In this document: piece by piece, positions 1 to 16,117 of the stretch
How the letters are laid out: the number at the start of each line of letters is the position of its first letter
Position numbering within the stretch: the first letter of the stretch is position 1
Assembly: GCF_006345805.1 (NCBI RefSeq)
Contig: NW_021825177.1
Location: 1 to 16,117 of the forward strand
Origin: Octopus sinensis
Taxonomy: Eukaryota
DNA: 16,117 nt
Reading direction: 5' to 3'
Notes under the pieces: model-generated
What the model saw: only the letters and a program-made list of their open reading frames with translations
Database searches by the model: none
Told to the model about the DNA's origin: nothing
Position numbers and translations under genes: made by a program

Positions 1-91
1 AGACATTTGCCCAAGATGCCACGCTGTGGGACTGAACCTGGACCTGTGTGTTGGTTAGCAAGCTACTTACCACACAGCCACTCCTGCGCCT
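1..91 (-). mobile_element. SINE family A, 5' head (truncated by the window edge)
   Basis: Reverse complement of the AGGCGCAGGAGTGGCTGTGTGGTAAGTAGCTTG...GGTTCAGTCCCACAGCGTGGCATCTTGGGCAA head also seen at 13971 and 14171. Confidence 0.85.
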
Positions 92-190
92 TACATTGTT
101 TAATTAAATGAAGTAGCATGAAATGAAACGATTGTACTACACTACCTTGGATATCCTTGTTGCTTATTTTGACTACATATATTTATATAT

Positions 191-603
191 ACTCTCTTAC
201 TTGTTTCAGTCATTTGACTGCGGCCATGCTGGAGCACCGCCTTTAGTCGAGCAACTCGACTTATTCTTTGTAAGCCCAGTACTTATTCTATCGGCCCATT
301 TTGCCGAACCGCTAAGTTACGGGGACATAAACACACCAGCATCGGTTGTCAAGCAATGCTAAGGGGACAAACACAGACACACAAACACACACACATACAC
401 ACACACACATATATATATATTTATATATATATATATATACGACGGGCTTCTTTCAGTTTCCGTCTACCAAATCCACTCACAAGGGTTTGGTCGGCCCGAG
501 GCTATAGTAGAAGACACTTGCCCAAGGTGCCACGCAGTGGGACTGAACCCGGAACCATGTGGTTGGTAAACAAGCTACTTACCACACAGCCATTCCTGCG
601 CCT
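191..603 (-). mobile_element. SINE family A, full-length tRNA-derived CORE-like SINE
   Basis: Reverse complement of the 11583-12010 and 12200-12632 copies: head, internal (TA)/(TG) microsatellite, body, and GACTGAAACAAGTAA(GAG) tail. Confidence 0.9.
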
Positions 604-622
604 ATATATACATATACATATA

Positions 623-784
623 TACGACGGGCTTCTTTCAGTTTCCGTTTACCAAATCCACTCACAAGGCTTTGGTCGGCCGAGGCTATAGTAGAAGACA
701 CTTTCCCAAGGTGCCACGCAGTGGGACTGAACCCCGAACCATGTGGTTGGTAAACAAGCTACTTACCACACAGCCACTCCTGCG

Positions 785-787
<3 letters not shown>
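623..787 (-). mobile_element. SINE family A, head-only copy in tandem with 191-603
   Basis: Near-identical to 437-603 and separated from it by a TA/TACA run. Confidence 0.9.
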
Positions 788-824
<37 letters not shown>

Positions 825-843
825 CAAATATATTTATCAAATC

Positions 844-907
844 CTACCAAATCCACTCACAAGGCTTACTGTGGCACCGAACCGGAAGCCATATGGCTGC
901 AAAGCGA
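844..907 (-). mobile_element. SINE family A, decayed and internally deleted head
   Basis: CTACCAAATCCACTCACAAGGCTT matches the head exactly. It is followed by a diverged GTGGCACCGAACCGGAAGCCATATGG segment (compare GTGGGACTGAACCCGGAACCATGTGG). Confidence 0.6.
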
Positions 908-1052
908 TATTTTAAAACCGAAACCTATGCTTTCGGCCTTCATTCAGAGATCCGTTGAGGTGTATGTGACCAAAGGACCAGCCTAGGGCGAAACAAAAAC
1001 GCCAGCGATATGGTAAATACCAGTACAAATGTTTTGATTGTATCAGATTAAT

Positions 1053-1300
1053 GGGTGGGGGGGTGTTGACGACGGTGGTGGCGGGTATTGGTGGTGGTGG
1101 TGGTGGTGGTTCATAATGAGGTAATGGTGGTGGAGGTGACAGTGACAGCAGTGGTGATGAAGGTAGTGGTGGTGGTGGTGGGTCGCGGACAATTGGGGGT
1201 TTTGTCAGTGGGGCAGGGGACGGGTTTTGGTGAAGATAGCCCTAATAATAAGTGTGTGTGTGGGGGTAGGTAATCGTCCATGGTGGTGGCGGTGGTGAGG
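1053..1300 (+). repeat. (GGT)n-rich low-complexity tract
   Basis: Imperfect GGT runs at 1090-1110, 1165-1180 and 1281-1300. Confidence 0.8.
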
Positions 1301-1422
1301 GTGATTATTGTGCTTATTGATTACAGGGGGGCGAGGAAGCAGTGTGGGGCCACGATGGAGTGGGGGTTGAAGCGAAACGTTTATCATCGATTTGATGCTA
1401 ATAACCGGCGCTATCTTGCCCA

Positions 1423-1995
1423 ACACACGCACCACACACTACTCACGCACATATACACGCATATATACACACACGCTCACACATACACACGCTTACACAG
1501 GTACGCACACATACAAACACCCGCGTATATACATACACACACGTATACATACATACATGCATACATATATATATACATACACACACACATACATACATAC
1601 ATGCATACATACATACACACACACACACATACATTCATACATACATTCATACATACACACATACATACACACATACATACATACACACATACATACAGAC
1701 ATATATTCATATACATACATATATACACAAACATATATATATTCATACATACAGATACATACATACGTACATAAAAACATACATACATACATACATTCAT
1801 ACATACATACTCATGCATACGCACACATACATACATACATATGCACACATACATACAAAAATACATACATACACACATACATACATTCATACATACATAC
1901 ATACATATATTCATACATACATACATACATACACACATACACATATACACACACACACATACACGCAAACTTACAAACACACACAGACACGCACA
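1423..1995. repeat. Compound (CATA)n/(CA)n microsatellite
   Basis: Directly visible CATA/CACA repeats. Confidence 0.95.
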
Positions 1996-2092
1996 AGAAA
2001 CACGCACGTCATTATCGAAAATAATGCCACACGTCAAAAACCCCAGTTTCACGCACAGGGCCCTACTCAACGAAACCCTCACGAACGCTGTC

Positions 2093-2378
2093 CACCCCCG
2101 ACCCCCACCCCATGCACTTCTCTCCGTGACCATCCTTACATCTAACACTCCCACCCACCCGCAATCACTAAAGAATCCACCACCACCGCCGCCACTATCA
2201 CTATCACCACCACCACCGCCGCCATCACCACCGTCACCTAGTCTCGGCCCAACCACCCGCTGCCAGGTCCACCAGCCCCCACCAACATTTACTCACCCAC
2301 CTACCTCGCCTCCCCCCCACCCCGCATTATTCGCCATGCCACGAACACCACCATTACAACCCCACCCGTCGCCCTCCA
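2093..2378 (+). repeat. (CCA)/(CCG)-rich, C-rich low-complexity tract
   Basis: CCACCACCACCGCCGCCA runs and C homopolymers. Confidence 0.75.
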
Positions 2379-2547
2379 CGTAGTGCGCCGCCAACCCCGA
2401 AGCGCCGCCGAGCTCGACTGATATTTATATGTCCCTAATGAAATGGCTGCTTATCACGCATTATACGCATGTCATAATGATGATGAGGAGTTAAGGAAAG
2501 GTCGCGGGGAGGAGCGGTGGGTGTGTGATTACGCTATATTAGCGATG

Positions 2548-2749
2548 GTGTGTGTGTATATATATATATATATTAACAATTTAACAAATAATACATATGC
2601 ATACATACATATATGTACATACCTACATCTATATGTATATATGTGTGTGTGTATATATATATATATATTAACAATTTAACAAATAATACATATGCATACA
2701 TACATATATGTACATACCTACATCTATATGTATATATGTGTGTGTGTAT
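2548..2749. repeat. 95-bp tandem duplication (2 copies) inside a TA/TG microsatellite
   Basis: TTAACAATTTAACAAATAATACATATGCATAC... begins at both 2573 and 2668. Confidence 0.9.
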
Positions 2750-2861
2750 GTATATATATATGTGTGTGTGTGTATATGTATATATGTGTGTGTATATATG
2801 TATAGATATATGCATACACACACACACACACACACATATATAAATATATATATATATATAT

Positions 2862-2915
2862 ATTAGTCAATTTAGGGTACCAAAAAAATTTTTTTGCTAC
2901 CCTAAATTGACTAAT
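2862..2915. repeat. 54-bp near-perfect palindrome with no spacer
   Basis: ATTAGTCAATTTAGGGTACC-A7|T7-GCTACCCTAAATTGACTAAT, centred at 2888/2889, with one mismatch (2880/2897). Confidence 0.95.
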
Positions 2916-3067
2916 TGATATAATTTTCTGAATAATTCTGAGATTGAATCGGCAGTTTATATTTACTGTTGATAAGTTTGGCGCGAATACGTCAGTCTTG
3001 AAAATTTTAAGTCAGATATCCCGTAGGCATCAATACAGACGCCTCGTGTATATTTGTCTCTCCCAGG

Positions 3068-3169
3068 TCTTTTACTGATGAAGTGTAACCTATGGTAGAT
3101 TGGCTTAATTTAATTTAATTAAGCTAATTTAATCATTAATGACACAGAAACGTTGCAACGTCTAAAAGG
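3068..3169 (+). ncRNA. Type-I hammerhead ribozyme (HHR-1) with long stem II
   Basis: Stem I TCTTTTA (3068-3074) / TAAAAGG (3163-3169). Core CTGATGA 3075-3081 and GAAA 3147-3150. Stem III ACGTTG/CAACGT. GUC triplet 3160-3162. Stem II GTGT/ACAC, ATGGT/ATCAT and a 14-bp AGATTGGCTTAATT/AATTAAGCTAATTT helix. Confidence 0.85.
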
Positions 3170-3424
3170 ATGAATTAGGGTAAATGTTTTTAAATTTTCA
3201 CCTAATTTCTGAATTAATAATACTTGGCGGTGTGAGTTATGGCTGCTCTTTCTGGTGGACGAGTGACCTGTTGGGGTCACTCCTAAATCGTTATATATAT
3301 ATATATATAATATATATATACAAAATTTAAAGGACTGACCACTAAAAGTGGATGGTGAATATGCTAGATACAGACGTCAAAATCGCTATTTTCCACGAAG
3401 AATGTGTTCTCAAGAAAAACTCAG

Positions 3425-3494
3425 CACAAAACCAAAGTGTAAAAAATAAACAATTTTCATTTGTCTTGCTTATTTTTTACACTTTGGTATTGTG
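3425..3494. repeat. Inverted repeat, 29-bp arms with a 12-nt loop
   Basis: CACAAAACCAAAGTGTAAAAAATAAACAA (3425-3453) versus TTGCTTATTTTTTACACTTTGGTATTGTG (3466-3494), 2 mismatches. Confidence 0.95.
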
Positions 3495-6400
3495 GGTGGG
3501 GCCCAGTTAGAATTTTCTTCTGGTTGGGTAGCCCATCCCACTCAAAAGGTCCCTGATTAAGGGTCGTTTAAGGATGTTGAAAGAACCACCCATGTTTCCA
3601 GAAGTGAATCATTCAAACCCCAAAGAATTCCTCTCAACACATGGCTATGATGCTCCCCCACTACTTCTGCTGGTGATCAAATATGCACATATCGTCAGCC
3701 ACTAAGGGACATGCTCAACTGGTTAAGGTCAAACAACTGACAAGCAAATATGTGGTATTGAGCAGAATATTTGCTGTAGCCCCTCTTTTATACCAAGACG
3801 AAACAATGTACATGATAACACTTCAAATCAGTTAAGATCAGAAGCCATGAGAGCCACTGCCTGGTACTGCATCCAGGCATAGCAAATCTGTGGTATTGAG
3901 CAGAATATTTGCTGTAGCCCATCTTTTATACCAAGACAAAACAATGTACATGATAACACTTCCAATCAGTTAAGATCAGAAGCCATGAGAGCCACTGCCT
4001 GGTACTGCATCAGGGCATTAGCAAATCTGTGGTATTGAGCAGAATATTTGCTGTAGCCCTCTTTTATACCAAGACGAAACAATGTACATGATAACACTTC
4101 AATCAGTTAAGATCAGAAGCCATGAGAGCCACTGCCTGGTACTGCTGATCAGGGCATTAGCAAATCTGTGGTATGAGCAGAATATTTGCTGTAGCCCCTC
4201 TTTATACCAAGACGAAACAATGTACATGATAACACTTCCAATCAGTTAGAGATCAGAAGCCATGAGAGCCACTGCCTGGTACTGCATCAGGGCATTAGCA
4301 AATCTGTGGTATTCAGCACAATATTTGCTGTAGGCCATCTTTTATACAAGACAAACTAATGTACATGATAACACTTCAATCAGTTAAGATCAGAAGCCAT
4401 GAGAGCCACTGCCTGGTACTGCATCAGGGCATTAGCAAATCTGTGGTATTGAGCAGAATATTTGCTGTAGCCCCTCTTTATACCAAGACGAAACAATGTA
4501 CATGATAACACTTCAATCAGTTAAGATCAGAAGCCATGAGAGCCACTGCCTGGTACTGCATCAGGGCATTAGCAATCTGTGGTATTGAGCAGAATATTTG
4601 CTGTAGCCCTCTTTTATACCAAGACAAAACATGTACATGATAACACTTCCAATCAGTTAAGATCAGAAGCCATGAGAGCCACTGCTGGTACTGCATCAGG
4701 GCATTAGCAAATCTGTGGTATTGAGCAGAATATTGCTGTAGGCCATCTTTTATACCAAGACGAAACAATGTACATGATAACACTTCAATCAGTTAAGATC
4801 AGAAGCCATGAGAGCCACTGCCTGTATACTGCATCAGGGCATTAGCAAATCTGTGGTATTGAGCAGAATATTTGCTGTAGCCCCTCTTTATACCAAGACG
4901 AAACAATGTACATGATAACACTTCCAATCAGTTAAGATCAGAAGCCATGAGAGCCACTGCCTGGTACTGCATCAGGGCATTAGCAAATCTGTGGTATTGA
5001 GCAGAATATTTGCTGTAGGCCATCTTTTATACCAAGACAAAACAATGTACATGATAACACTTCCAATCAGTTAGATCAGAAGCCATGAGAGCCACTGCCT
5101 GGTACTGCATCAGGGCATTAGCAAATCTGTGGTATTGAGCAGAATATTTGCTGTAGCCAGTCCCATCTTTTATACCAAGACAAAACAATGTACATGATAA
5201 CACTTCCAATCAGTTAAGATCAGAAGCCATGAGAGCCACTGCCTGGTACTGCATCAGGGCATTAGCAATCTGTGGTATTGAGCAGAATATTTGCTGTAGC
5301 CATCTTTTATACCAAGACAAAACAATGTACATGATAACACTTCCAATCAGTTAAGATCAGAAGCCATGAGAGCCACTGCCTGGTACTGCATCAGGGCATT
5401 AGCAAATCTGTGGTATTGAGCAGAATATTTGCTGTAGCCCATCTTTTATACCAAGACAAAACAATGTACATGATAACACTTCCAATCAGTTAAGATCAGA
5501 AGCCATGAGAGCCACTGCCTGGTACTGCATCAGGGCATTAGCAAATCTGTGGTATTGAGCAGAATATTTGCTGTAGCCCATCTTTTATACCAAGACAAAA
5601 CATGTACATGATAACACTTCCAATCAGTTAAGATCAGAAGCCATGAGAGCCACTGCCTGGTACTGCTCAGGGCATTAGCAAATCTGTGGTATTGAGCAGA
5701 ATATTTGCTGTAGCCCATCTTTTATACCAAGACAAAACAATGTACATGATAACATAACACTTCAATCAGTTAAGATCAGAAGCCATGAGACCACTGCCTG
5801 GTACTGCATCAGGGCATTAGCAAATCTGTGGTATTGAGCAGAATATTTGCTGTACCCATCTTTTATACCAAGACAAAACAATGTACATGATAACACTTCC
5901 AATCAGTTAAGATCAGAAGCATGAGAGCCACTGCCTGGTACTGCATCAGGGCATTAGCAAATCTGTGGTATTGAGCAGAATATTGCTGTAGCCCATCTTT
6001 TATACCAAGACAAAACAATGTACATGATAACACTTCCAATCAGTTAAGATCAGAGCCATGAGAGCCACTGCCTGGTACTGCATCAGGGCATTCAAATCTG
6101 TGGTATTGAGCAGAATATTGCTGTAGCCCATCTTTTATACCAAGACAAAACAATGTACATGATAACACTTCCAATCAGTTAAGATCAGAAGCCATGAGAG
6201 CCACTGCTGGTACTGGTACTGCATCAGGGCATTAGCAAATCTGTGGTATTGAGCAGAATATTTGCTGTAGCCCATCTTTTATACCAAGACAAAACAATGT
6301 ACATGATAACACTTCAAATCAGTTAAGATCAGAAGCCATGAGAGCCACTGCCTGGTACTGCATCAGGGCATTAGCAAATCTGTGGTATTGAGCAGAATAT

Positions 6401-9400
6401 TTGCTGTTGTCCATCTTTTATACCCAGACAAAACAATGTACATGATAACACTTCCAATCAGTTAAGATCAGAAGCCATGAGAGCCACTGCCTGGAACTGC
6501 ATCAGGGCATTAGCAAATCTGTGGTATTGAGCAGAATATTTGCTGTAGCCCATCTTTTATACCAGACAAAACAATGTACATGATAACACTTCCAATCAGT
6601 TAAGATCAGAAGCCATGAGAGCCACTGCCTGAACTGCATCAGGGCATTAGCAAATCTGTGGTATTGAGCAGAATATTTGCTGTAGGCCATCTTTTATACC
6701 AAGACAAAACAATGTACATGATAACACTTCCAATCAGTTAAGATCAGAAGCCATGAGAGCCACTGCCTGGAACTGCATCAGGGCATTAGCAAATCTGTGG
6801 TATTGAGCAGAATATTTGCTGTAGCCCATCTTTTATACCCAGACAACACAACATGTACATGATAACACTTCCAATCAGTTAAGATCAGAAGCCATGAGAG
6901 CCACTGCCTGCCTGGTACTGCATCAGGGCATTAGCAATCTGTGGTATTGAGCAGAATATTTGCTGTTGTCCATCTTTATACCAAGACAAAACAATGTACA
7001 TGATAACACTTCCAATCAGTTAAGATCAGAAGCCATGAGAGCCACTGCCTGGTACTGCATCAGGGTATTAGCAAATCTGTGGTATTGAGCAGAATATTTG
7101 CTGTAGCCCATCTTTTATACCAAGACAAAACAATGTACATGATAACACTTCCAGTCAGTTAAGATCAGAAGCCATGAGAGCCACTGCCTGGTACTGCATC
7201 AGGGTATTAGCAAATCTGTGGTATTGAGCAGAATATTTGCTGTAGCCCATCTTTTATACCAAGACAAAACAATGTACATGATAACACTTCCAATCAGTTA
7301 AGATCAGAAGCCATGAGAGCCACTGCCTGGTACTGCATCAGGGCATTAGCAAATCTGTGGTATTGAGCAGAATATTTGCTGTAGCCCATCTTTTATACCC
7401 AGACAAAACAATGTACATGATAACACTTCCAATCAGTTAAGATCAGAAGCCATGAGAGCCACTGCCTGGAACTGCATCAGGGCATTAGCAAATCTGTGGT
7501 ATTGAGCAGAATATTTGCTGTAGCCCATCTTTTATACCCAGACAAAACAATGTACATGATAACACTTCCAATCAGTTAAGATCAGAAGCCATGAGAGCCA
7601 CTGCCTGGAACTGCATCAGGGCATTAGCAAATCTGTGGTATTGAGCAGAATATTTGCTGTAGCCCATCTTTTATACCCAGACAAAACAATGTACATGATA
7701 ACACTTCCAATCAGTTAAGATCAGAAGCCATGAGAGCCACTGCCTGGTACTGCATCAGGGCATTAGCAAATCTGTGGTATTGAGCAGAATATTTGCTGTT
7801 GTCCATCTTTTATACCAAGACAAAACAATGTACATGATAACACTTCCAATCAGTTAAGATCAGAAGCCATGAGAGCCACTGCCTGGTACTGCATCAGGGT
7901 ATTAGCAAATCTGTGGTATTGAGCAGAATATTTGCTGTAGCCCATCTTTTATACCAAGACAAAACAATGTACATGATAACACTTCCAGTCAGTTAAGATC
8001 AGAAGCCATGAGAGCCACTGCCTGGTACTGCATCAGGGTATTAGCAAATCTGTGGTATTGAGCAGAATATTTGCTGTAGCCCATCTTTTATACCAAGACA
8101 AAACATGTACATGATAACACTTCCAATCAGTTAAGATCAGAAGCCATGAGAGCCCCTGCCTGTACTGCATCAGGGCATTAGCAAATCTGTGGTATTGAGC
8201 AGAATATTTGCTGTAGCCCATCTTTTATACCAAGACAAAACAATGTACATGATAACACTTCCAATCAGTTAAGATCAGAAGCCATGAGAGCCTGCCTGGT
8301 ACTGCATCAGGGCATTAGCAAATCTGTGGTATTGAGCAGAATATTTGCTGTTGTCCATCTTTTATACCAAGACAAAACAATGTACATGATAACACTTCCA
8401 ATCAGTTAAGATCAGAAGCCATGAGAGCCACTGCCTGGATACTGCATCAGGGCATTAGCAAATCTGTGGTATTGAGCAGAATATTGCTGTAGCCCATCTT
8501 TTATACCAGACAAAACAATGTACATGATAACACTTCCAATCAGTTAAGATCAGAAGCCATGAGAGCCACTGCCTGGTACTGCATCAGGGCATTAGCAAAT
8601 CTGTGGTATTGAGCAGAATATTGCTGTTGTCCATCTTTATACCAAGACAAAACATGTACATGATAACACTTCCAATCAGTTAAGATCAGAAGCCATGAGA
8701 GCCACTGCCTGGAACTGCATCAGGGCATTAGCAAATCTGTGGTATTGAGCAGAATATTTGCTGTAGCCCATCTTTTATACCAAGACAAAACAATGTACAT
8801 GATAACACTTCCAGTCAGTTAAGATCAGAAGCCATGAGAGCCACTGCCTGGTACTGCATCAGGTATTAGCAAATCTGTGGTATTGAGCAGAATATTTGCT
8901 GTAGCCCATCTTTTATACCAAGACAAAACAATGTACATGATAACACTTCCAGTCAGTTAAGATCAGAAGCCATGAGAGCCACTGCCTGGTACTGCATCAG
9001 GGCATTAGCAAATCTGTGGTATTCAGCACAATATTTGCTGTAGCCCATCTTTTATACCAAGACAAAACAATGTACATGATAACACTTCCAATCAGTTAAG
9101 ATCAGCAGCCATGAGAGCCACTGCCTGGTACTGCATCAGGGCATTAGCAAATCTGTGGTATTGAGCAGAATATTTGCTGTAGCCCATCTTTTATACCAAG
9201 ACAAAACAATGTACATGATAACACTTCCAGTCAGTTAAGATCAGAAGCCATGAGAGCCACTGCCTGGTACTGCATCAGGTATTAGCAATCTGTGGTATTG
9301 AGCAGAATATTTGCTGTAGCCCATCTTTTATACCAAGGCAAAACAATGTACATGATAACACTTCCAATCAGTTAAGATCAGAAGCCATGAGAGCCACTGC

Positions 9401-10001
9401 CTGGTACTGCATCAGGGCATTAGCAAATCTGTGGTATTGAGCAGAATATTTGCTGTAGCCCATCTTTATATACCAAGACAAAACAATGTACATGATAACA
9501 CTTCCAGTCAGTTAAGATCAGAAGCCATGAGAGCCACTGCCTGGTACTGCATCAGGCATTAGCAAATCTGTGTATTGAGCAGAATATTTGCTGTAGCCCA
9601 TCTTTTATACCAAGACAAAACAATGTACATGATAACACTTCCAATCAGTTAAGATCAGAAGCCATGAGAGCCACTGCCTGGTACTGCATCAGGGCATTAG
9701 CAAATCTGTGGTATTGAGCAGAATATTTGCTGTAGGACATCTTTTATACCAAGACAAAACAATGTACATGATAACACTTCCAATCAGTTAAGATCAGAAG
9801 CCATGAGAGCCACTGCCTGGTACTGCATCAGGGCATTAGCAAATCTGTGGTATTGAGCAGAATATTTGCTGTAGGCCATCTTTTATACCAAGACAAAACA
9901 ATGTACATGATAACACTTCCAATCAGTTAAGATCAGAAGCCATGAGAGCCACTGCCTGGTACTGCATCAGGGCATTTATTATTATTATTATTATTATTAT
10001 T
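3495..10001 (+). mobile_element. 5'-truncated non-LTR retroelement 3' region with tandemly amplified terminus and (TTA)n tail
   Basis: About 250 bp of unique sequence runs seamlessly into the first array unit, and the last unit ends directly in a (TTA)n tail (9975-10001). The terminal stem-loop TGCCTG...CAGGGCA precedes the tail. No ORF remains, so the clade cannot be assigned and the 5' boundary is approximate. Confidence 0.6.
3743..9976 (+). repeat. Tandem array, 45 copies of a ~139-bp unit
   Basis: Unit: AGCAAATCTGTGGTATTGAGCAGAATATTTGCTGTAGCCCATCTTTTATACCAAGACAAAACAATGTACATGATAACACTTCCAATCAGTTAAGATCAGAAGCCATGAGAGCCACTGCCTGGTACTGCATCAGGGCATT. Starts were counted by eye (3743, 3881, 4020 ... 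5401, 5540 ... 9699, 9838). Confidence 0.98.
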
Positions 10002-10023
10002 GTTGTTGTTGTTGTTATTGTTG
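9975..10023 (+). repeat. (TTA)n followed by (TTG)n microsatellite tail
   Basis: Directly visible. Confidence 0.95.
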
Positions 10024-10028
10024 CATAT

Positions 10029-10117
10029 TATTTCGTCTGTCTTTACGTTCTGAGTTCAAATTCCACAAGGTCAACTTTGCTTTTCATCTTTTCAGGGTCG
10101 ATAAACAAATTTCCAGT
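10029..10117 (+). mobile_element. SINE family B, internal fragment
   Basis: Aligns to 13514-13603, including GAGTTCAAATTCC and CTTTGC(C/T)TTTCATC...GGGTCGATAAA. Confidence 0.8.
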
Positions 10118-10139
10118 CAATTATGCCTATTATTATTCC

Positions 10140-10320
10140 CCTTTTTGGGAATTTTTCGTTGTTATAATTTTGATTGTTACACTGTTTTTACACGGGTTTT
10201 TACACACGGACAAAACCCTTTGTAACTTTTCGTCCTGTTTTGTCCCCTTTTTGTTATAATTAATTTTTGTCAGCCCTTGTGGCCAATAAAAGAATTAATT
10301 ATTATTATTATTATTATTAT
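10140..10320 (+). mobile_element. Retroposon 3'-end fragment with (ATT)n tail, sharing its tail with the SINE B copy at 13468
   Basis: GTCCTGTTTTGTCCCCTTTTTGTT...CAGCCCTTGTGGCCAATAAAAGAA resembles 13645-13693 and is followed by (ATT)n. The 5' boundary is uncertain. Confidence 0.5.
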
Positions 10321-10327
10321 CATGGGA

Positions 10328-10546
10328 GGCAGTGTGCTGGCAGAATCGATACCACGCCAGACAAAATGCTTAGCGGCATTTCGTCCGTCTTTATGTTTTG
10401 AGTTCAAATTCCATCAAGGTCGACTTTGCCCTTCATTCTTCCAAGGTCGATAAAAGAGGTACCAGTTGTAAACCGGGGGTCGACGTAATCGACTTACCGC
10501 CTCTGCCGGAATTGCTGGTTTTGTGCCAAGATTTTTAACCAATATT
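10328..10546 (+). mobile_element. SINE family B, diverged near-full copy (tail type 2)
   Basis: A-box-like TGGCAGAATCG and B-box GAGTTCAAATTCC. The body is homologous to 13468-13632, but the tail differs (AATTGCTGGTTTTGTGCCAAGATTT). Confidence 0.8.
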
Positions 10547-11102
10547 TGTGGAGTGTATCACTAGATACTGACATCCTTTTTCTGATTACATTCTTCAATC
10601 TTCGTTGCTGACGTTGAATATTTTCCGTATGTGAATCTCCCCTGATTCACTGCGAGGCTTGTTTCCTGTTTCTGACGGCGTCGTTGCATCATTTTTCCGC
10701 CGTTCTTTTTATTTCCCCCACTCCATCTCTTTTCCTTAATGTCTATTTTGCTGATGGTATTTATATGAATTCGGTGATAAAGATAATTACTGCTGTATAT
10801 TTATCCTCATGTAAAAAAAAAACCAACCCAAAAACGATGAAAAAATGTATCAAGATTAAATTAGACAACCTTAAGTGAATATAAATATACGTCTGTGTTT
10901 ATGTCTGCAAATGTGTTTACGTATGATTATACGCATGTGTATACTCACAAACACACACACGAATGCATGTATATATTTTATTTTAAACTTATTTTAGTAG
11001 ATGAGAGTTAAATTATGTTCTATAATTATCATCAAGGAATACCTAGAATTTCATTTCCGAACATCAAATACCTACATATATACACATGAACACGTGTATT
11101 CC

Positions 11103-11156
11103 GTCATTCCTTTACGCGTTTCAGCTCGGGGGTTGTGGCTATTCTGGGGCACCGCC
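11103..11156 (-). mobile_element. 3' tail fragment of a SINE related to family A
   Basis: Reverse complement reads GGCGGTGCCCCAGAATAGCCACAAC...GAGCTGAAACGCGTAAAG, similar to the family A tail GGCGGTGCTCCAGCATGGCCGCAGTCAAATGACTGAAACAAGTAAA. Confidence 0.6.
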
Positions 11157-11255
11157 AGTGATTATTTATATATATATATATACATATATTATATATATAT
11201 ATACAAATAATCACATATATATATATATACATGTGTGTGTGTGTGCATGTGTGTG

Positions 11256-11287
<32 letters not shown>

Positions 11288-11507
11288 TATAGATGTCTGA
11301 CTGGCAGGATGAAGCGGCTGACCTCCCTTTTCGAAGGTTTATAATGGACGCAGTTTGTGTCAAATAGCTAGCTTAAGGCGATGCCTCATGGAGCTAATCA
11401 GCGACAGCTTTAGTCTTATATTTAAAGGCTGCCATATCAGTATGGCGATAACTATTAATTTCCAGTAACGCTGTCGTATCTCTTTTAGAAAGACTTAGTA
11501 ATTTTAA

Positions 11508-11511
<4 letters not shown>

Positions 11512-11583
<72 letters not shown>
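11512..11583. repeat. Pure (TA)n run of about 70 bp
   Basis: Directly visible, abutting the SINE head. Confidence 0.95.
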
Positions 11584-11585
<2 letters not shown>

Positions 11586-11746
11586 CGCAGGAGTGGCTGT
11601 GTGGTAAGTAGCTTGTTTACCAACCACATGGTTCCGGGTTCAGTCCCACTGCGTGGCATGTTGGGCAAGTGTCTTCTGCTATAGCCTCGGGCCGACAAAT
11701 GCCTTGTGAGTGGATTTGGTAGACGGAACCTGAAAAGAAGCCCGTC

Positions 11747-11787
<41 letters not shown>

Positions 11788-12010
11788 CGTGTGTGTGTGT
11801 GTGTGTGTGTTTGTCCCCCTAGCATTGCTTGACAACTGATGCTGGTGTGTTTATGTCCCCGTTACTTAGCGGTTCGGCAAAAGGGACCGATAGAATAAGT
11901 ACTGGGCTTACAAAAGAATAAGTCCCGGGGTCGAGTTGCTCGATTAAAGGCGGTGCTCCAGTATGACCGCAGTCAAATGACTGAAACAAGTAAAAGAGTA
12001 AAAAGAGAGA
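11583..12010 (+). mobile_element. SINE family A, full-length
   Basis: Pol III A-box TGGCTGTGTGG 11594-11604 and B-box-like GGTTCAGTCCC 11637-11647. CORE-like TTGGGCAAGT segment, internal (TA)n(TG)n, and (TAAAAGAG)n tail. It resembles the octopus tRNA-derived SINEs (OK/OR1/OR2 group); the exact family is not assigned. Confidence 0.9.
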
Positions 12011-12054
12011 GTACTGGAACGTTTTGATACCACTTCGTATATATGCTGGTGTAT

Positions 12055-12168
12055 CTTTGTCCTCCGCCACCATCGACTCAACTTCGGTGTTGGTTTGTTT
12101 TCCTTCCCGTTACTTCGCGGTTCGGCAAAAATATATCGATGGAACGAGTACGAGACTTACAAAATAAA
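12055..12168 (+). mobile_element. Old, diverged SINE A-related body, left part of an interrupted copy
   Basis: TTTGTCCTCC...CCCGTTACTTCGCGGTTCGGCAAAA...CGATGGAACGAGTACGAGACTTACAAAATAA is collinear with 11810-11920. Confidence 0.75.
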
Positions 12169-12199
12169 TAAACAAATAATTAAAATAAAATAAATAAAT

Positions 12200-12632
12200 A
12201 GGCGCAGGGGTGGCTGTGTGGTAAGTAGCTTGCTAACCAACCACATGGTTCCGGGTTCAGTCCCACTGCGTGGCACCTTGGGCAAGTGTCTTCTGCTATA
12301 GCCCCGGGCTGATCAATGCCTTGTGAGTGGATTTGGTAGACGGAAACTGAAAGAAGCCTGTCGTATATATGTATATATGTCTATATATATATATATGTTT
12401 GTGTGTATATATGTTTGTGTGTCTGTGTTTGTCCCCCTAGCATTGCTTGACAACCGATGCTGGTGTGTTTACGTCCCCGTCACTTAGCGGTTCGGCAAAA
12501 GTGACCGATAGAATAAGTACTGGGCTTACAAAAGAATAAGTCCTGGGGGTCGATTTGCTCGACTAAAGGCGGTGCTCCAGCATGGCCGCAGTCAAATGAC
12601 TGAAACAAGTAAAAGAGTAAAAGAGTAAAGAG
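12200..12632 (+). mobile_element. SINE family A, full-length, nested in an older copy
   Basis: Complete head, body and tail. The CORE-like TGCGTGGCACCTTGGGCAAGTGTCTT lies at 12267-12292. Confidence 0.9.
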
Positions 12633-12638
12633 TAAATA

Positions 12639-12733
12639 TGCTCTGGTGTCGCTCTGCTCCACAAAACGTCTCAAAGCGGTGCACCAGCATGGCCGCAGTC
12701 CAATGACTGAATCAAATGAAGGATAAAAGATAA
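12639..12733 (+). mobile_element. Old, diverged SINE A-related tail, right part of the interrupted copy
   Basis: CTGGTGTCGCTCTGCTCCAC...GCGGTGCACCAGCATGGCCGCAGTCCAATGACTGAA...GATAAAAGATAA continues the consensus from where 12055-12168 stops. Confidence 0.75.
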
Positions 12734-13174
12734 TATCATAGTATAACGGAACACTAAGTAGGGCGGTGTGGAGTCATATGAGGAGCGACGAGAGGTTGGA
12801 TAGCGCCATGACTGCGGGTTTATCGGTATTCCAGATACGAAGATATTTTAACGGCTTTCTTCCTAATGTATCATTTTTTTTAAAACGATATTTGTTGACA
12901 TCCATCATCTTCGAGGCTGAGTGTGGATTACATTTGCATAAATTAAACATGTATGCAGGAAGTAGGGTTTGTGATGGTGGCAATGGGCGTCATACTGTTG
13001 ATGTTTGCGATGTGTGGGTGGAGGTGTACTGGTTCGGATGTTTGTGGTAGTGGTGGGTGCTGTTGGTGGTTGAGTTGTAAGTAATTGTATTGGTGGAGGC
13101 TGTGGTGAAAGGACCATAGTTATTTTTGCCGTAAGGTAATGTTGCGGGAATGCACACTTATATATTGTCAGATA

Positions 13175-13433
13175 ACACACACACACATACGCTCACACAC
13201 ATGTACACACACATTAAATATGTATATATATATATATATAAATATATGTATGTATATGCATATGTATGTATACATATATGTATGTATATGCATGTATATT
13301 CATATGTACGTATTTATATATACTAATAACTAATTCTGTTATATGTACATACATATATGCATACATGTGTGTATGTAAATGTATGCATGTATGTGTGTAT
13401 GTGTTTATATGTGAATGTATGTATGTGTGTGTG

Positions 13434-13466
<33 letters not shown>
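13175..13466. repeat. Compound (CA)/(TA)/(TATG) microsatellite
   Basis: Directly visible. Confidence 0.9.
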
Positions 13467-13467
<1 letters not shown>

Positions 13468-13469
<2 letters not shown>

Positions 13470-13690
13470 CAAGGTGGCAGAAACGCTAGCGCGCCGGTCG
13501 AAATGCTTAGCGGTATTTCGTCTGTCGTTACGTTCTGAGTTCAAATTCCGCCAAGGTCGACTTTGCCTTTCATCCTTTCGGGGTCGATAAATAAAGTACC
13601 AGTTTCGCACTAGGTTCGATGTAGTCGACTTAATCCCTTTGTCTGTCTTTGTTTGTCCCCTCTATGTTTAGCTCCTTGTTGGCAGTAAAG

Positions 13691-13695
<5 letters not shown>
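13468..13695 (+). mobile_element. SINE family B, full-length tRNA-derived SINE with a Meta-domain-like centre (tail type 1)
   Basis: A-box-like TGGCAGAAACG 13475-13485 and B-box GAGTTCAAATTCC 13537-13549. The central GACTTTGCCTTTCATCCTTTCGGGGTCGATAAATAAAGTACCAG resembles the MetaSINE domain as I recall it. Flanked by (TA)n on both sides. Confidence 0.85.
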
Positions 13696-13729
<34 letters not shown>

Positions 13730-13754
13730 ACTTCTTTGACTATCTTATAAAAAC

Positions 13755-13878
13755 TCTCTGATGAACCCTAGAGGCATACCCAAGTACCCTAATTTTATCT
13801 ACAGATTACTACAGTACACTGAAAAGATGGAAATAATATGTGGGGTACTGTGACCCCTTGACAGAAACAGCTGTAAGA
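13755..13878 (+). ncRNA. Type-I hammerhead ribozyme motif (HHR-2), probably degenerate
   Basis: CTGATGA 13758-13764 and GAAA 13864-13867. Palindromic stem III ACAGCTGT, GUA triplet 13873-13875. Stem I TCT/AGA is only 3 bp. The 99-nt stem II region has GTACCC/GGGTAC and TTTTATCT/AGATGGAA helices, but its base pairs poorly. Confidence 0.6.
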
Positions 13879-13970
13879 AACTGCTCTTCTTTCTCTATTC
13901 TAGAAATTACTGGTACTTTACATATGTATTTATATATTATCTGAACTGTTTAAAATAAATAAATAGACAT

Positions 13971-14136
13971 AGGCGCAGGAGTAGCTGTGTGGTAAGTAGC
14001 TTGCTAACCAACCACATGGTTCCGGGTTCAGTCCCACAGCGTAGCATCTTGGGCAAGTGTCTTCTGCTATAACCTCGGGCCGACCAATGCCTTGTGAGTG
14101 GATTTAGTAGACGGAAACCGAAAGAAGCCTGTCGTA

Positions 14137-14171
<35 letters not shown>

Positions 14172-14520
14172 GGCGCAGGAGTGGCTGTGTGGTAAGTAGC
14201 TTGCTAACCAACCACATGGTTCCGGGTTCAGTCCCACAGCGTGGCATCTTGGGCAAGTGTCTTCTGCTATAGCCCCGGGCCGACCAATGCCTTGTGAGTG
14301 GATTTAGTAGACGGAAACCGAAAGAGGCCTGTCGTATATTATATATATAATATATATATAAATAGGCGCAGGAGTGGCTGTGTGGTAAGTAGCTTGCTAA
14401 CCACCACATGGTTCCGGGTTCAGTCCACAGGTGGCATCTTGGGCAAGTGTCCTTTTGCTATAGCCCGCCGACCAATCCTTGTGAGTGGATTTAGTAGACG
14501 AACCGAAAGAAGCGGTCGTA

Positions 14521-14610
<90 letters not shown>

Positions 14611-15010
14611 AATAGGCGCAGGAGTGGCTGTGTGGTAAGTAGCTTGCTAACCAACCACATGGTTCCGGGTTCAGTCCCCAGCGTGGCATCTTGGGCAAGT
14701 GTCTTCTGCTATAGCCCCGGGCCGACCAATGCCTTGGTGAGTGGATTTGGTAGACGAAAACTGAAAAGAAGCCTGTCGTATATATATATATGTATGTGTT
14801 TGTGTGTCTGTGTTTGTCTCCCTAGCATTGCTTGACAAGCAATGCTAGTGTGTTTACGTCCCCGTCACTTAGCGGTTCGGCAAAAGAGACCGATAGAATA
14901 AGTACTGGGCTTACAAAGAATAAGTCCTGGGGGTCGATTTTCTCGACTAAAGGCGGTGCTCCAGCATGGCCGCAGTCAAATGACTGAAACAAGTAAAAGA
15001 GTAAAGAGTA
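13971..15010 (+). mobile_element. Composite SINE A: three head-only units (13971, 14171, 14364) plus one full copy (14614-15010), flanked by an AGACATA duplication
   Basis: Four heads separated by (TA)n, with a single body and tail. AGACATA occurs at 13965-13971 and 15011-15017. Confidence 0.9.
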
Positions 15011-15111
15011 AGACATAATATAATGTCTAACAGTTGAAGAATACTACCTCTGGATTCACTCCATTTTCTCCTTGCCATATAAATATTTATATTTATTACA
15101 TTCGGTAATGA

Positions 15112-15248
15112 TATAACAGGGGGTTGGGTTAAACATCATGAAATATATAATCTTTACACGTGTTTCGCCAACGTATACAAGTATATTGTACGGTCATTAT
15201 TACGTATGCGATTACATAGTCATCAGAAGTAGGGAGTAAATGAATCCA
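15112..15248 (-). repeat. Left arm of a long inverted repeat (137 bp)
   Basis: Reverse complement of 15673-15827 apart from 2 substitutions and an 18-nt indel. Confidence 0.95.
15152..15229 (-). ncRNA. Type-I minimal hammerhead ribozyme motif (HHR-3)
   Basis: The minus strand reads CTT-CTGATGA-(53 nt)-GAAA-CACGTG-TA-AAG. Palindromic stem III ACACGTGT, GUA triplet, 3-bp stem I. Confidence 0.65.
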
Positions 15249-15542
15249 CCCATTTATTATATTCGGTAGTGCAATTGGCATGCAATAAAAAAAATCCCAC
15301 TTGTGTATTAATAATTTGGTATTCTACCAGCGGTATTTTGGATAGATATTATTCCTTAGTTGGTTGGATTCACTACCTCAAACTCTCTTTGAATTAAATA
15401 TAAATCTTCGTATACAGGCAAATAGTTAAATAATTTAATATAAACTTTAAATCGTATATATACGACAATCTGTTGGTATCGAAACATTTGTAGCGATTAA
15501 AAAATTGCTGAACCGTACTTACTCTTCCTTTTGACTCTTTTA

Positions 15543-15576
<34 letters not shown>

Positions 15577-15583
15577 ACCTGGC

Positions 15584-15618
15584 TTGGCCGCAATCCAGTG
15601 ACTGAAACAGATAAAAGA
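15584..15618 (+). mobile_element. Short SINE A-related tail remnant
   Basis: TGGCCGCAATCCAGTGACTGAAACAGATAAAAGA resembles 12691-12730 and 12583-12615. Confidence 0.55.
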
Positions 15619-15672
15619 TCCACACACACACACACTGAGTTCTGCTTAGAAACGGAGGTCGGTACGTTACAA

Positions 15673-15827
15673 TGGATTCATTTACTCCTTACTTCTGATG
15701 ACTTGATACCTTAAGAGGATTATGTAATCGCATACGTAATGATGACCGTACAATATACTTGTATACGTTGGCGAAACACGTGTAAAGATTATATATTTCA
15801 TGATGTTTAACCCAACCCCCTGTTATA
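15673..15827 (+). repeat. Right arm of the long inverted repeat (155 bp)
   Basis: Matches the reverse complement of 15112-15248, with an extra TTGATACCTTAAGAGGAT at 15703-15720. Confidence 0.95.
15692..15787 (+). ncRNA. Type-I minimal hammerhead ribozyme motif (HHR-4)
   Basis: CTT 15692-15694, CTGATGA 15695-15701, 71-nt stem II region, GAAA 15773-15776, stem III ACACGTGT, GUA 15782-15784, AAG 15785-15787. Confidence 0.6.
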
Positions 15828-16117
15828 CGGTGCTCTCGGTTACACACCTACGTATCTCTATCTATGCATATGTCTGTGCATGTGTGGGTGTTCTTTGAAG
15901 GCCGGGGTGCATAGTGTTATTGATGATTTTCGTGGACGTGTTCGTTTCTTATACGATTCGAAATGGCCAAGACGTTTCCGTAACCTCTCCGCTCTAGTAC
16001 TGCTTTCCCTCCCCGTATCTCTGTCAGTGAAATTTCCTGCCTCGCACGTCTACAGGAATGTGGGGGGAGGAACCAGTTGTTTCCTTTCCCAAAGTTTGAA
16101 AACTTACAACATTCGGA

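Follow-up and report, generated by a model that had tools for sequence, protein, structure and literature searches.

A long-armed type-I hammerhead motif carried by a non-autonomous Penelope-type retrozyme of Octopus sinensis

Positions 3068-3169 (+ strand) of a 16,117-nt stretch of Octopus sinensis DNA (NW_021825177.1, positions 1 to 16,117; hereafter the window) hold a genuine type-I hammerhead motif whose structure is conserved. The element that carries it is a non-autonomous Penelope-type (non-LTR) retrozyme, a class of mobile sequence that is already known. We hold with good confidence that this is a young non-coding 475-bp repeat, found within (TA)n as tandem arrays that meet head to head, whose RNA likely cleaves itself as a dimer after C3162, yields circular monomers and is copied by a Penelope-like reverse transcriptase-endonuclease supplied in trans.

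The motif was assigned from its sequence, from constrained folding and from covariation. All bases of the type-I core (C3 U4 G5 A6 N7 G8 A9, G12 A13 A14, the A15.1-U16.1 pair and H17) are present, and three stems, with stem I open, are backed by covariation. Stem I, whose support comes from the fold and from covariation over 20 relatives, consists of 7 bp with a terminal U·G pair formed between UCUUUUA (3068-3074, + strand) and UAAAAGG (3163-3169). The core strand CUGAUGA (C3-A9, 3075-3081, +) shows no substitution in 1130 aligned cells of the 475-bp family. It is followed by a stem II of 65 nt (3082-3146, +), delimited by folding and by comparison with sister families, and by a segment (3147-3162, +) that carries the GAAA half of the core (3147-3150), stem III (3150-3161) and C17 (3162), after which the cut is predicted. 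The stem III sequence, ACGUUGCAACGU, is a perfect 12-nt palindrome. In its core bases, topology, stem I, stem III and stem II length, the motif is as the original prediction described it. The further claim that stem II is one long rod holds in part: a rod of 19 bp, which includes three G·U pairs and a single bulge, occupies 3092-3136, but it is preceded by A10.1 (3082) opposite A11.1 (3146), by 4 bp (3083-3086/3142-3145) and by a 5 x 5 internal loop (3087-3091/3137-3141). The constrained fold of stem II has an energy of -22.2 kcal/mol, and the hammerhead region folds at lower energy than all 200 of 200 shuffled sequences (z = -3.06). For a lone monomer, the minimum-energy fold mispairs the core and the hammerhead fold makes up about 3% of the predicted ensemble.

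Base pair 10.1/11.1 is the stem II pair conserved most among hammerheads (PMC3088659), and the paired N10.1-N11.1 of a type-I hammerhead is replaced here by A·A. Across 115 distinct copies in four groups the same slot holds G-C, A-U, A·C or A·A, and the full series is found inside one group whose following four pairs hardly vary. The original reading of this position as an A/A mismatch is right because the whole substitution series occupies the same slot in relatives; by this comparison, A·A replaces G10.1-C11.1 at the base of stem II. We also considered that the two adenosines are insertions flanking an intact G10.1-C11.1 pair. This reading is ruled out by the G-C, A-U and A·C found in the same slot of near-identical relatives, and is countered as well by one sister family with U-A as the next pair. 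In the survey of Perreault et al., matches mispaired at 10.1/11.1 were discarded and one U·U case was reported (PMC3088659). Among the 56 motifs given by Cervera and de la Pena (2014), GAAA stands directly 3′ of the stem in 55; the remaining motif has AGAAA, which may be an A·A of this kind (PMC4209133, supplement Fig. S3).

No Rfam hammerhead family was among the matches to E 5 or E 10, for either the whole window or positions 3000-3260; the Rfam matches inside the window are microsatellite hairpins scoring under their cut-offs. Genome-wide pattern searches, whose counts are sequence-pattern matches and hence putative ribozymes, returned 13,351 G-C motifs with a stem II of 37-67 nt (control, 102), 1,397 A·A motifs with a stem II of 39-69 nt (control, 2) and 1,011 A·A motifs with a stem II of 9-38 nt (control, 7). 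The matches listed include many unrelated families with a palindromic 8-nt stem III. Among the loci examined, 114 distinct A·A sequences fall into 19 rough clusters, whose representatives have a fully pairing stem III in 15 of 19 cases and a stem I of at least 4 bp in 11. The original prediction that stem II far exceeds that of typical hammerheads is borne out by the 65 nt at this locus, but the feature is not peculiar to it, being found in thousands of motifs across the genome. Judging from these matches, the long stem II is a lineage-wide form that extends over many families, not a one-locus oddity.

Published accounts describe shorter or differently defined forms: 'long helix II' denotes 6-8 bp in one source (PMC13725137), and Craig et al. 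give eight Naiad half-cores spaced 35-50 nt (PMC8557442). A squid genome paper lists 235 Rfam hammerheads (PMC6962438), and the word ribozyme does not occur in the available text of an octopus repeat annotation (PMC13282606). The papers searched contain neither a description of long-armed A·A hammerheads at such a scale nor an account of two-ended retrozyme insertions; earlier descriptions of both are possible.

Two further features of the window were noted during these searches. A second, unrelated hammerhead-like sequence forms an inverted pair (15112-15229, - strand, and 15710-15827, + strand) that reads CUGAUGA ... CGAAAC ACGU GUA, the two halves of the core being 52 and 70 nt apart; its stems I and II fit poorly, and the pair is possibly decayed. 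A 139-bp satellite of about 45 copies occupies 3740-9975, inside which the long-stem hammerhead pattern found no match.

The relatives of the 475-bp repeat provide most of the information on structural conservation. Three sister groups, traced from sequence in public contigs, gave 882, 228 and 694 pattern matches (controls, 0); they are 74-95% identical to the 475-bp unit and have the same two-ended architecture. Twenty relatives were selected, in which 92.4% of 620 cells are paired, compared with 26-46% in slid controls, and 9 of 31 pairs are altered on both sides (3 of 7 in stem I), with compensation in stems I, II and III; these rows are related sequences whose kinship inflates pairing measures, and the values serve as support and not as a formal test. 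The number of two-sided pairs showed no excess over shuffles (151 of 500). All 13 core positions are identical in three units that otherwise share 55-65% identity, and all four families retain the catalytic bases and a cleavable GUH triplet amid neighbouring bases that vary. Stem III is palindromic in four different sequences across the families, and predicted heteroduplexes between them are 8-12 kcal/mol weaker than the homoduplex of the 475-bp family. Sister families (L232-L250, L281) also extend the rod to 80 nt by symmetric 5-nt additions, and some of their subfamilies carry U4C, giving CCGAUGA.

Within the 475-bp family the picture is less marked, with 0.32 distinct variants per base in the hammerhead versus 0.34-0.39 in the flanks. 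The original prediction's reading of the G-U pairs as a sign of selection on the RNA is weak when taken from one copy or from the young family, whereas changes between sister families do carry evidence. Taken together, the alignments place the signal of RNA-level selection in the sister families and indicate that it is weak within the young family. Four rod variants that seemed to improve pairing were set aside because they match hairpin inversions at arm junctions (L100).

The repeat is abundant and young. A 16-mer covering stem III has 634 exact matches in the genome versus 3 for its reversed control, and 19 of 20 fetched matches are members of the 475-bp family, which gave at least 209 matches with 94-100% identity among the matches listed (39 of 813 candidates scored). 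Like non-LTR retrozymes, its units are tandem, non-coding and low in GC, with one type-I hammerhead each. With base 1 of the unit set at window position 3068, the forward arm of the insertion in the window (2887-3296, +) comprises unit bases 297-475 and then 1-229, stopping at a first fixed 3′ end. A short inverted arm (2862-2890, -) comprises unit bases 297-325 and stops at a second fixed 3′ end. The two arms meet head to head at AATT (2887-2890), and (TA)n target sequence lies on the left (2841-2861, from sequence) and on the right (3297-3320, from sequence and end mapping).

This arrangement recurs throughout the family. Forty-eight insertions were mapped, among which 32 have two fully visible arms, 15 have a single arm and 1 is cut by the locus edge. 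In each of these 32 two-armed insertions the arms face head to head, one arm stopping near unit 229-240 and its counterpart near 323-349. When ends were placed exactly, 35 of 48 rows stop at unit 229 and 26 of 36 rows at 323-325, mostly followed by (TA)n; some of the end rows away from these positions are internal deletions. The two fixed 3′ ends, one per arm, are thus 96 nt apart. A hairpin sits shortly 5′ of each, both hairpins covary between families, and the one just 5′ of the first end (3261-3282, +) is a candidate signal for a helper enzyme. Arm lengths extend from 29 bases, in the window copy, to about 10 units, and where other loci contain up to 16 or more hammerheads the window has one; the window copy is a shortened product with a single hammerhead and no partner in cis.

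Tandem and inverted 5′-truncated copies with a tail at one end, seen in 32 of 32 cases, and placement in (TA)n are the insertion structure and the microsatellite or AT-rich targeting of Penelope-like elements (PLEs). No reverse transcriptase (RT) or endonuclease ORF, as an autonomous PLE would have, was found inside the mapped insertions of this family or its sister families. The proposed membership of a non-autonomous Penelope/retrozyme-like family is supported by these two-ended, ORF-free insertions. A spliceosomal intron ending CCCAG/G before stem I, as in Drosophila Penelope, was considered and rejected: the AG is lost in two sister families, and no splice or skipping joint over this site was found in contigs of the four sequencing runs that carry the unit. 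Two other observations concern the surroundings of the repeat. A SINE-like sequence starting AGGCGCAGG, which we take to resemble octopus repeats, lies in many copies beside (TA)n at window positions 250-820, 11580-12620 and 13970-15010. At 2979-2989 (unit about 385-395), and also in L133, stands TTTGGCGCG, which presumably resembles an E2F site and could belong to an internal promoter; three sister units and an unrelated hammerhead family retain it.

The palindromic stem III was expected to favour dimers, and energy predictions agree, with -17.9 kcal/mol for the homoduplex versus -0.9 kcal/mol for the hairpin. When two copies are cofolded, the minimum-energy structure is a complete double hammerhead with a shared 12-bp stem III (-68.7 versus 2 x -27.0 kcal/mol); the best fold of a natural two-hammerhead transcript includes both stems II and the joint stem III but lacks stem I. 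On these models, self-cleavage after C3162 as a dimer is likely. On sequence grounds, AGGU (3065-3068, +) and ACCU, which occupies 3088-3091 within the stem II internal loop, are candidate partners of a pseudoknot that would provide a tertiary contact. A GGU/ACC or GGC/GCC match occurs in all 104 distinct copies that have both motifs (115 examined), which may reflect one evolutionary event, and over 12 unrelated clusters the pairing is not significant (p = 0.094). If the contact is real, the working stem II is ordinary in length and the rod is a cap.

The arrays also carry information about the template from which they were copied. Units diverge by a mean of 0.46% within insertions versus 1.8% between insertions. 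The 29 insertions with at least three segments hold 112 array-wide, 34 partial and 127 single-unit variants, and nine array-wide variants, in seven insertions, are private to one of 36 sampled loci and are present on both arms. Most arms cross the intact cut site; therefore the template was uncleaved or re-ligated. One haplotype per insertion on both arms fits a single-monomer template, which was probably circular, and repeated copying of a circle would be the simplest account of the long homogeneous arms. Homogeneous arrays can alternatively arise from uncleaved multimer templates or by gene conversion. Circular monomers have been proposed as the template of retrozymes (PMC7229834).

Contigs of four runs, each under another organism label and with an RNA status that is a guess, carry the unit. 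No run found to hold it is recorded as RNA, which speaks neither for nor against expression. A unit-length back-joint is present in contigs of three of the four and fits tandem DNA and circles alike. In run X1, aligned to L031:5926-6400, 56 of 76 changed sites are A>G or T>C and 7 are the reverse. Such a skew is as expected for A-to-I hyper-editing of transcripts made double-stranded by the inverted arms, for a run of guessed RNA status from another organism label; it is absent from runs X6 (20 versus 16) and X16 (9 versus 10).

Intact Penelope-like ORFs with RT and GIY-YIG domains, 775-781 aa in length, occur in the genome. We found no autonomous element with unit DNA in 50 GIY-YIG loci (from 150 scored of 5029 candidates, with most families outside this sample), and no autonomous partner sharing unit DNA in 70 sister-family loci. 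One intact young PLE (L131, 1174-4877) has a 479-aa ORF followed by a 781-aa RT and GIY-YIG ORF with a CxxxxCxxC linker, and is Neptune-like. A second young intact family (L137, 2742-5069; 775 aa) has a hammerhead-like motif with an apparent U·U at 10.1/11.1.

The mechanism that we propose would begin with what the genome displays, a dispersed young family lacking an ORF, with two 3′ ends 96 nt apart and (TA)n targets. Comparison suggests that its ribozyme is maintained, the core being fixed and the stems compensated, with 10.1/11.1 as G-C, A-U, A·C or A·A. Adjacent hammerheads in an array transcript are predicted to form the 12-bp stem III and to cut once per unit. Functionally, stem II would be a normal helix of 4-5 bp, its internal loop in contact with the nucleotides 5′ of stem I, and would be capped by the long rod as an appendage. 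By analogy with published retrozymes, monomers would then be ligated into circles. Finally, a helper enzyme would nick both (TA)n strands and start reverse transcription at the two fixed sites, travelling between 0.1 and about 10 rounds of the template before the two cDNAs meet head to head.

The most serious alternative, which we regard as unlikely, keeps the same mobile element but makes the hammerhead a fold bound by a helper protein, with slow or no cutting, and derives the arrays from uncleaved multimeric transcripts without a circle. There is precedent for this in the anole PLE, whose hammerhead is protein-dependent and dispensable for insertion in vitro, where mutants insert normally and unprocessed RNA is the main substrate (PMC11167929). 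PLE hammerheads are mostly slow (PMC4209133; review PMC6765202), and among nine Xenopus retrozyme dimers one cleaved in vitro and eight did not (bioRxiv 10.64898/2026.07.22.740005). Drift of 10.1/11.1 and U4 in sister families, and arm 5′ ends that do not cluster at the cut site, point the same way. However, catalytic bases and the GUH triplet have been kept in four families as their neighbours changed, and truncating copies of linear multimers could only shorten arrays, yet single-haplotype arms reach about 10 units.

It is far less probable that the copies are terminal repeats shed by an autonomous PLE and expanded in place by unequal crossover, never retrotransposing themselves. Such a route has been proposed for vertebrate retrozymes (bioRxiv 10.64898/2026.07.22.740005), and tandem arrays do occur here, but every array is bounded by two precise ends and has a junction and a fresh (TA)n target to itself, private variants are common to both inverted arms, and no ORF-bearing parent was found among the insertions, the 50 GIY-YIG loci or the 70 sister-family loci. 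That the repeat is a MITE-like non-autonomous DNA transposon or a fold-back repeat in which AT-rich palindromes mimic a hammerhead is hardly credible: the inverted arms at which insertions finish, the AT-rich near-palindromic rod and the lack of an Rfam hammerhead match would suit it, but G·U-tolerant compensatory changes surround an invariant single-stranded core, and the variable arm lengths and junctions and two unequal ends are unlike terminal inverted repeats.

Copying of a retrozyme RNA by a Penelope-type enzyme, the reading that we prefer, has its closest parallels in metazoan non-LTR retrozymes (Cervera and de la Pena, 2020, PMC7229834; Li et al., bioRxiv 10.64898/2026.07.22.740005). 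Their tandem units, too, are non-coding, a few hundred bases long and low in GC, each with a single type-I hammerhead, and Penelope-like elements have been proposed to mobilize them. Unlike these, the octopus element combines a 65-nt stem II, in which the rod follows an internal loop, with A·A at 10.1/11.1, a 12-nt palindrome, and head-to-head arrays with two fixed ends; its circles are putative. The words 'inverted' and 'head-to-head' are absent from the available text of PMC7229834. Hammerheads in the pseudo-LTRs of PLEs are also of type I, with a palindromic stem III, predicted dimer activity and a purine after A9, but in them helix II does not exceed about 8 bp, its loop is small, and G10.1-C11.1 is the closing pair (Cervera and de la Pena, 2014, PMC4209133).

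With respect to insertion structure, Craig et al. (2021, PMC8557442) report tandem or inverted pseudo-LTRs with a tail for PLEs; like the octopus repeat, Neptune and Naiad occur in AT-rich or (TA)n sequence as tandem plus inverted 5′-truncated copies. In the Poseidon element of Anolis (Frangieh et al., 2024, PMC11167929), two internal 3′ ends define a tail downstream of the hammerhead; this tail stretches from one internal RT start site to the other, and extension takes place on both strands of the target. The tail here is about 96 nt, compared with 30-40 nt in those elements, and the octopus repeat has no ORF and arms of up to about 10 units. MRC1 and other non-autonomous Chlamys elements are comparable as PLE passengers with multicopy head-to-tail insertions, but most lack hammerheads, and they differ in host kingdom and targets (PMC8557442).

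Several consequences follow for this family and for hammerheads in such genomes. The near-identical ribozymes supply a natural series of G-C, A-U, A·C and A·A at the most conserved stem II pair of the hammerhead, and our counts suggest that descriptor and Rfam surveys may undercount hammerheads in genomes of this kind. A bolder proposal, to which we give somewhat less than an even chance, is that these motifs constitute an undescribed class of active long-armed hammerheads with more than 15,000 copies spread over many families of this animal lineage, in which A10.1 would free 11.1 from pairing and the stem II internal loop would take over the tertiary contact, and that the head-to-head arrays record a Penelope enzyme rolling round one RNA circle from two starts. 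If this is true, the arrays would speak more directly than any earlier evidence for retrozyme circles as the template of transposition. Retrozyme circles are known, whereas a role for Penelope helpers in the movement of animal retrozymes has only been suspected; since this young family is a pure retrozyme with the two-end signature of Penelope elements and has one haplotype per insertion, the circle-template model becomes directly testable.
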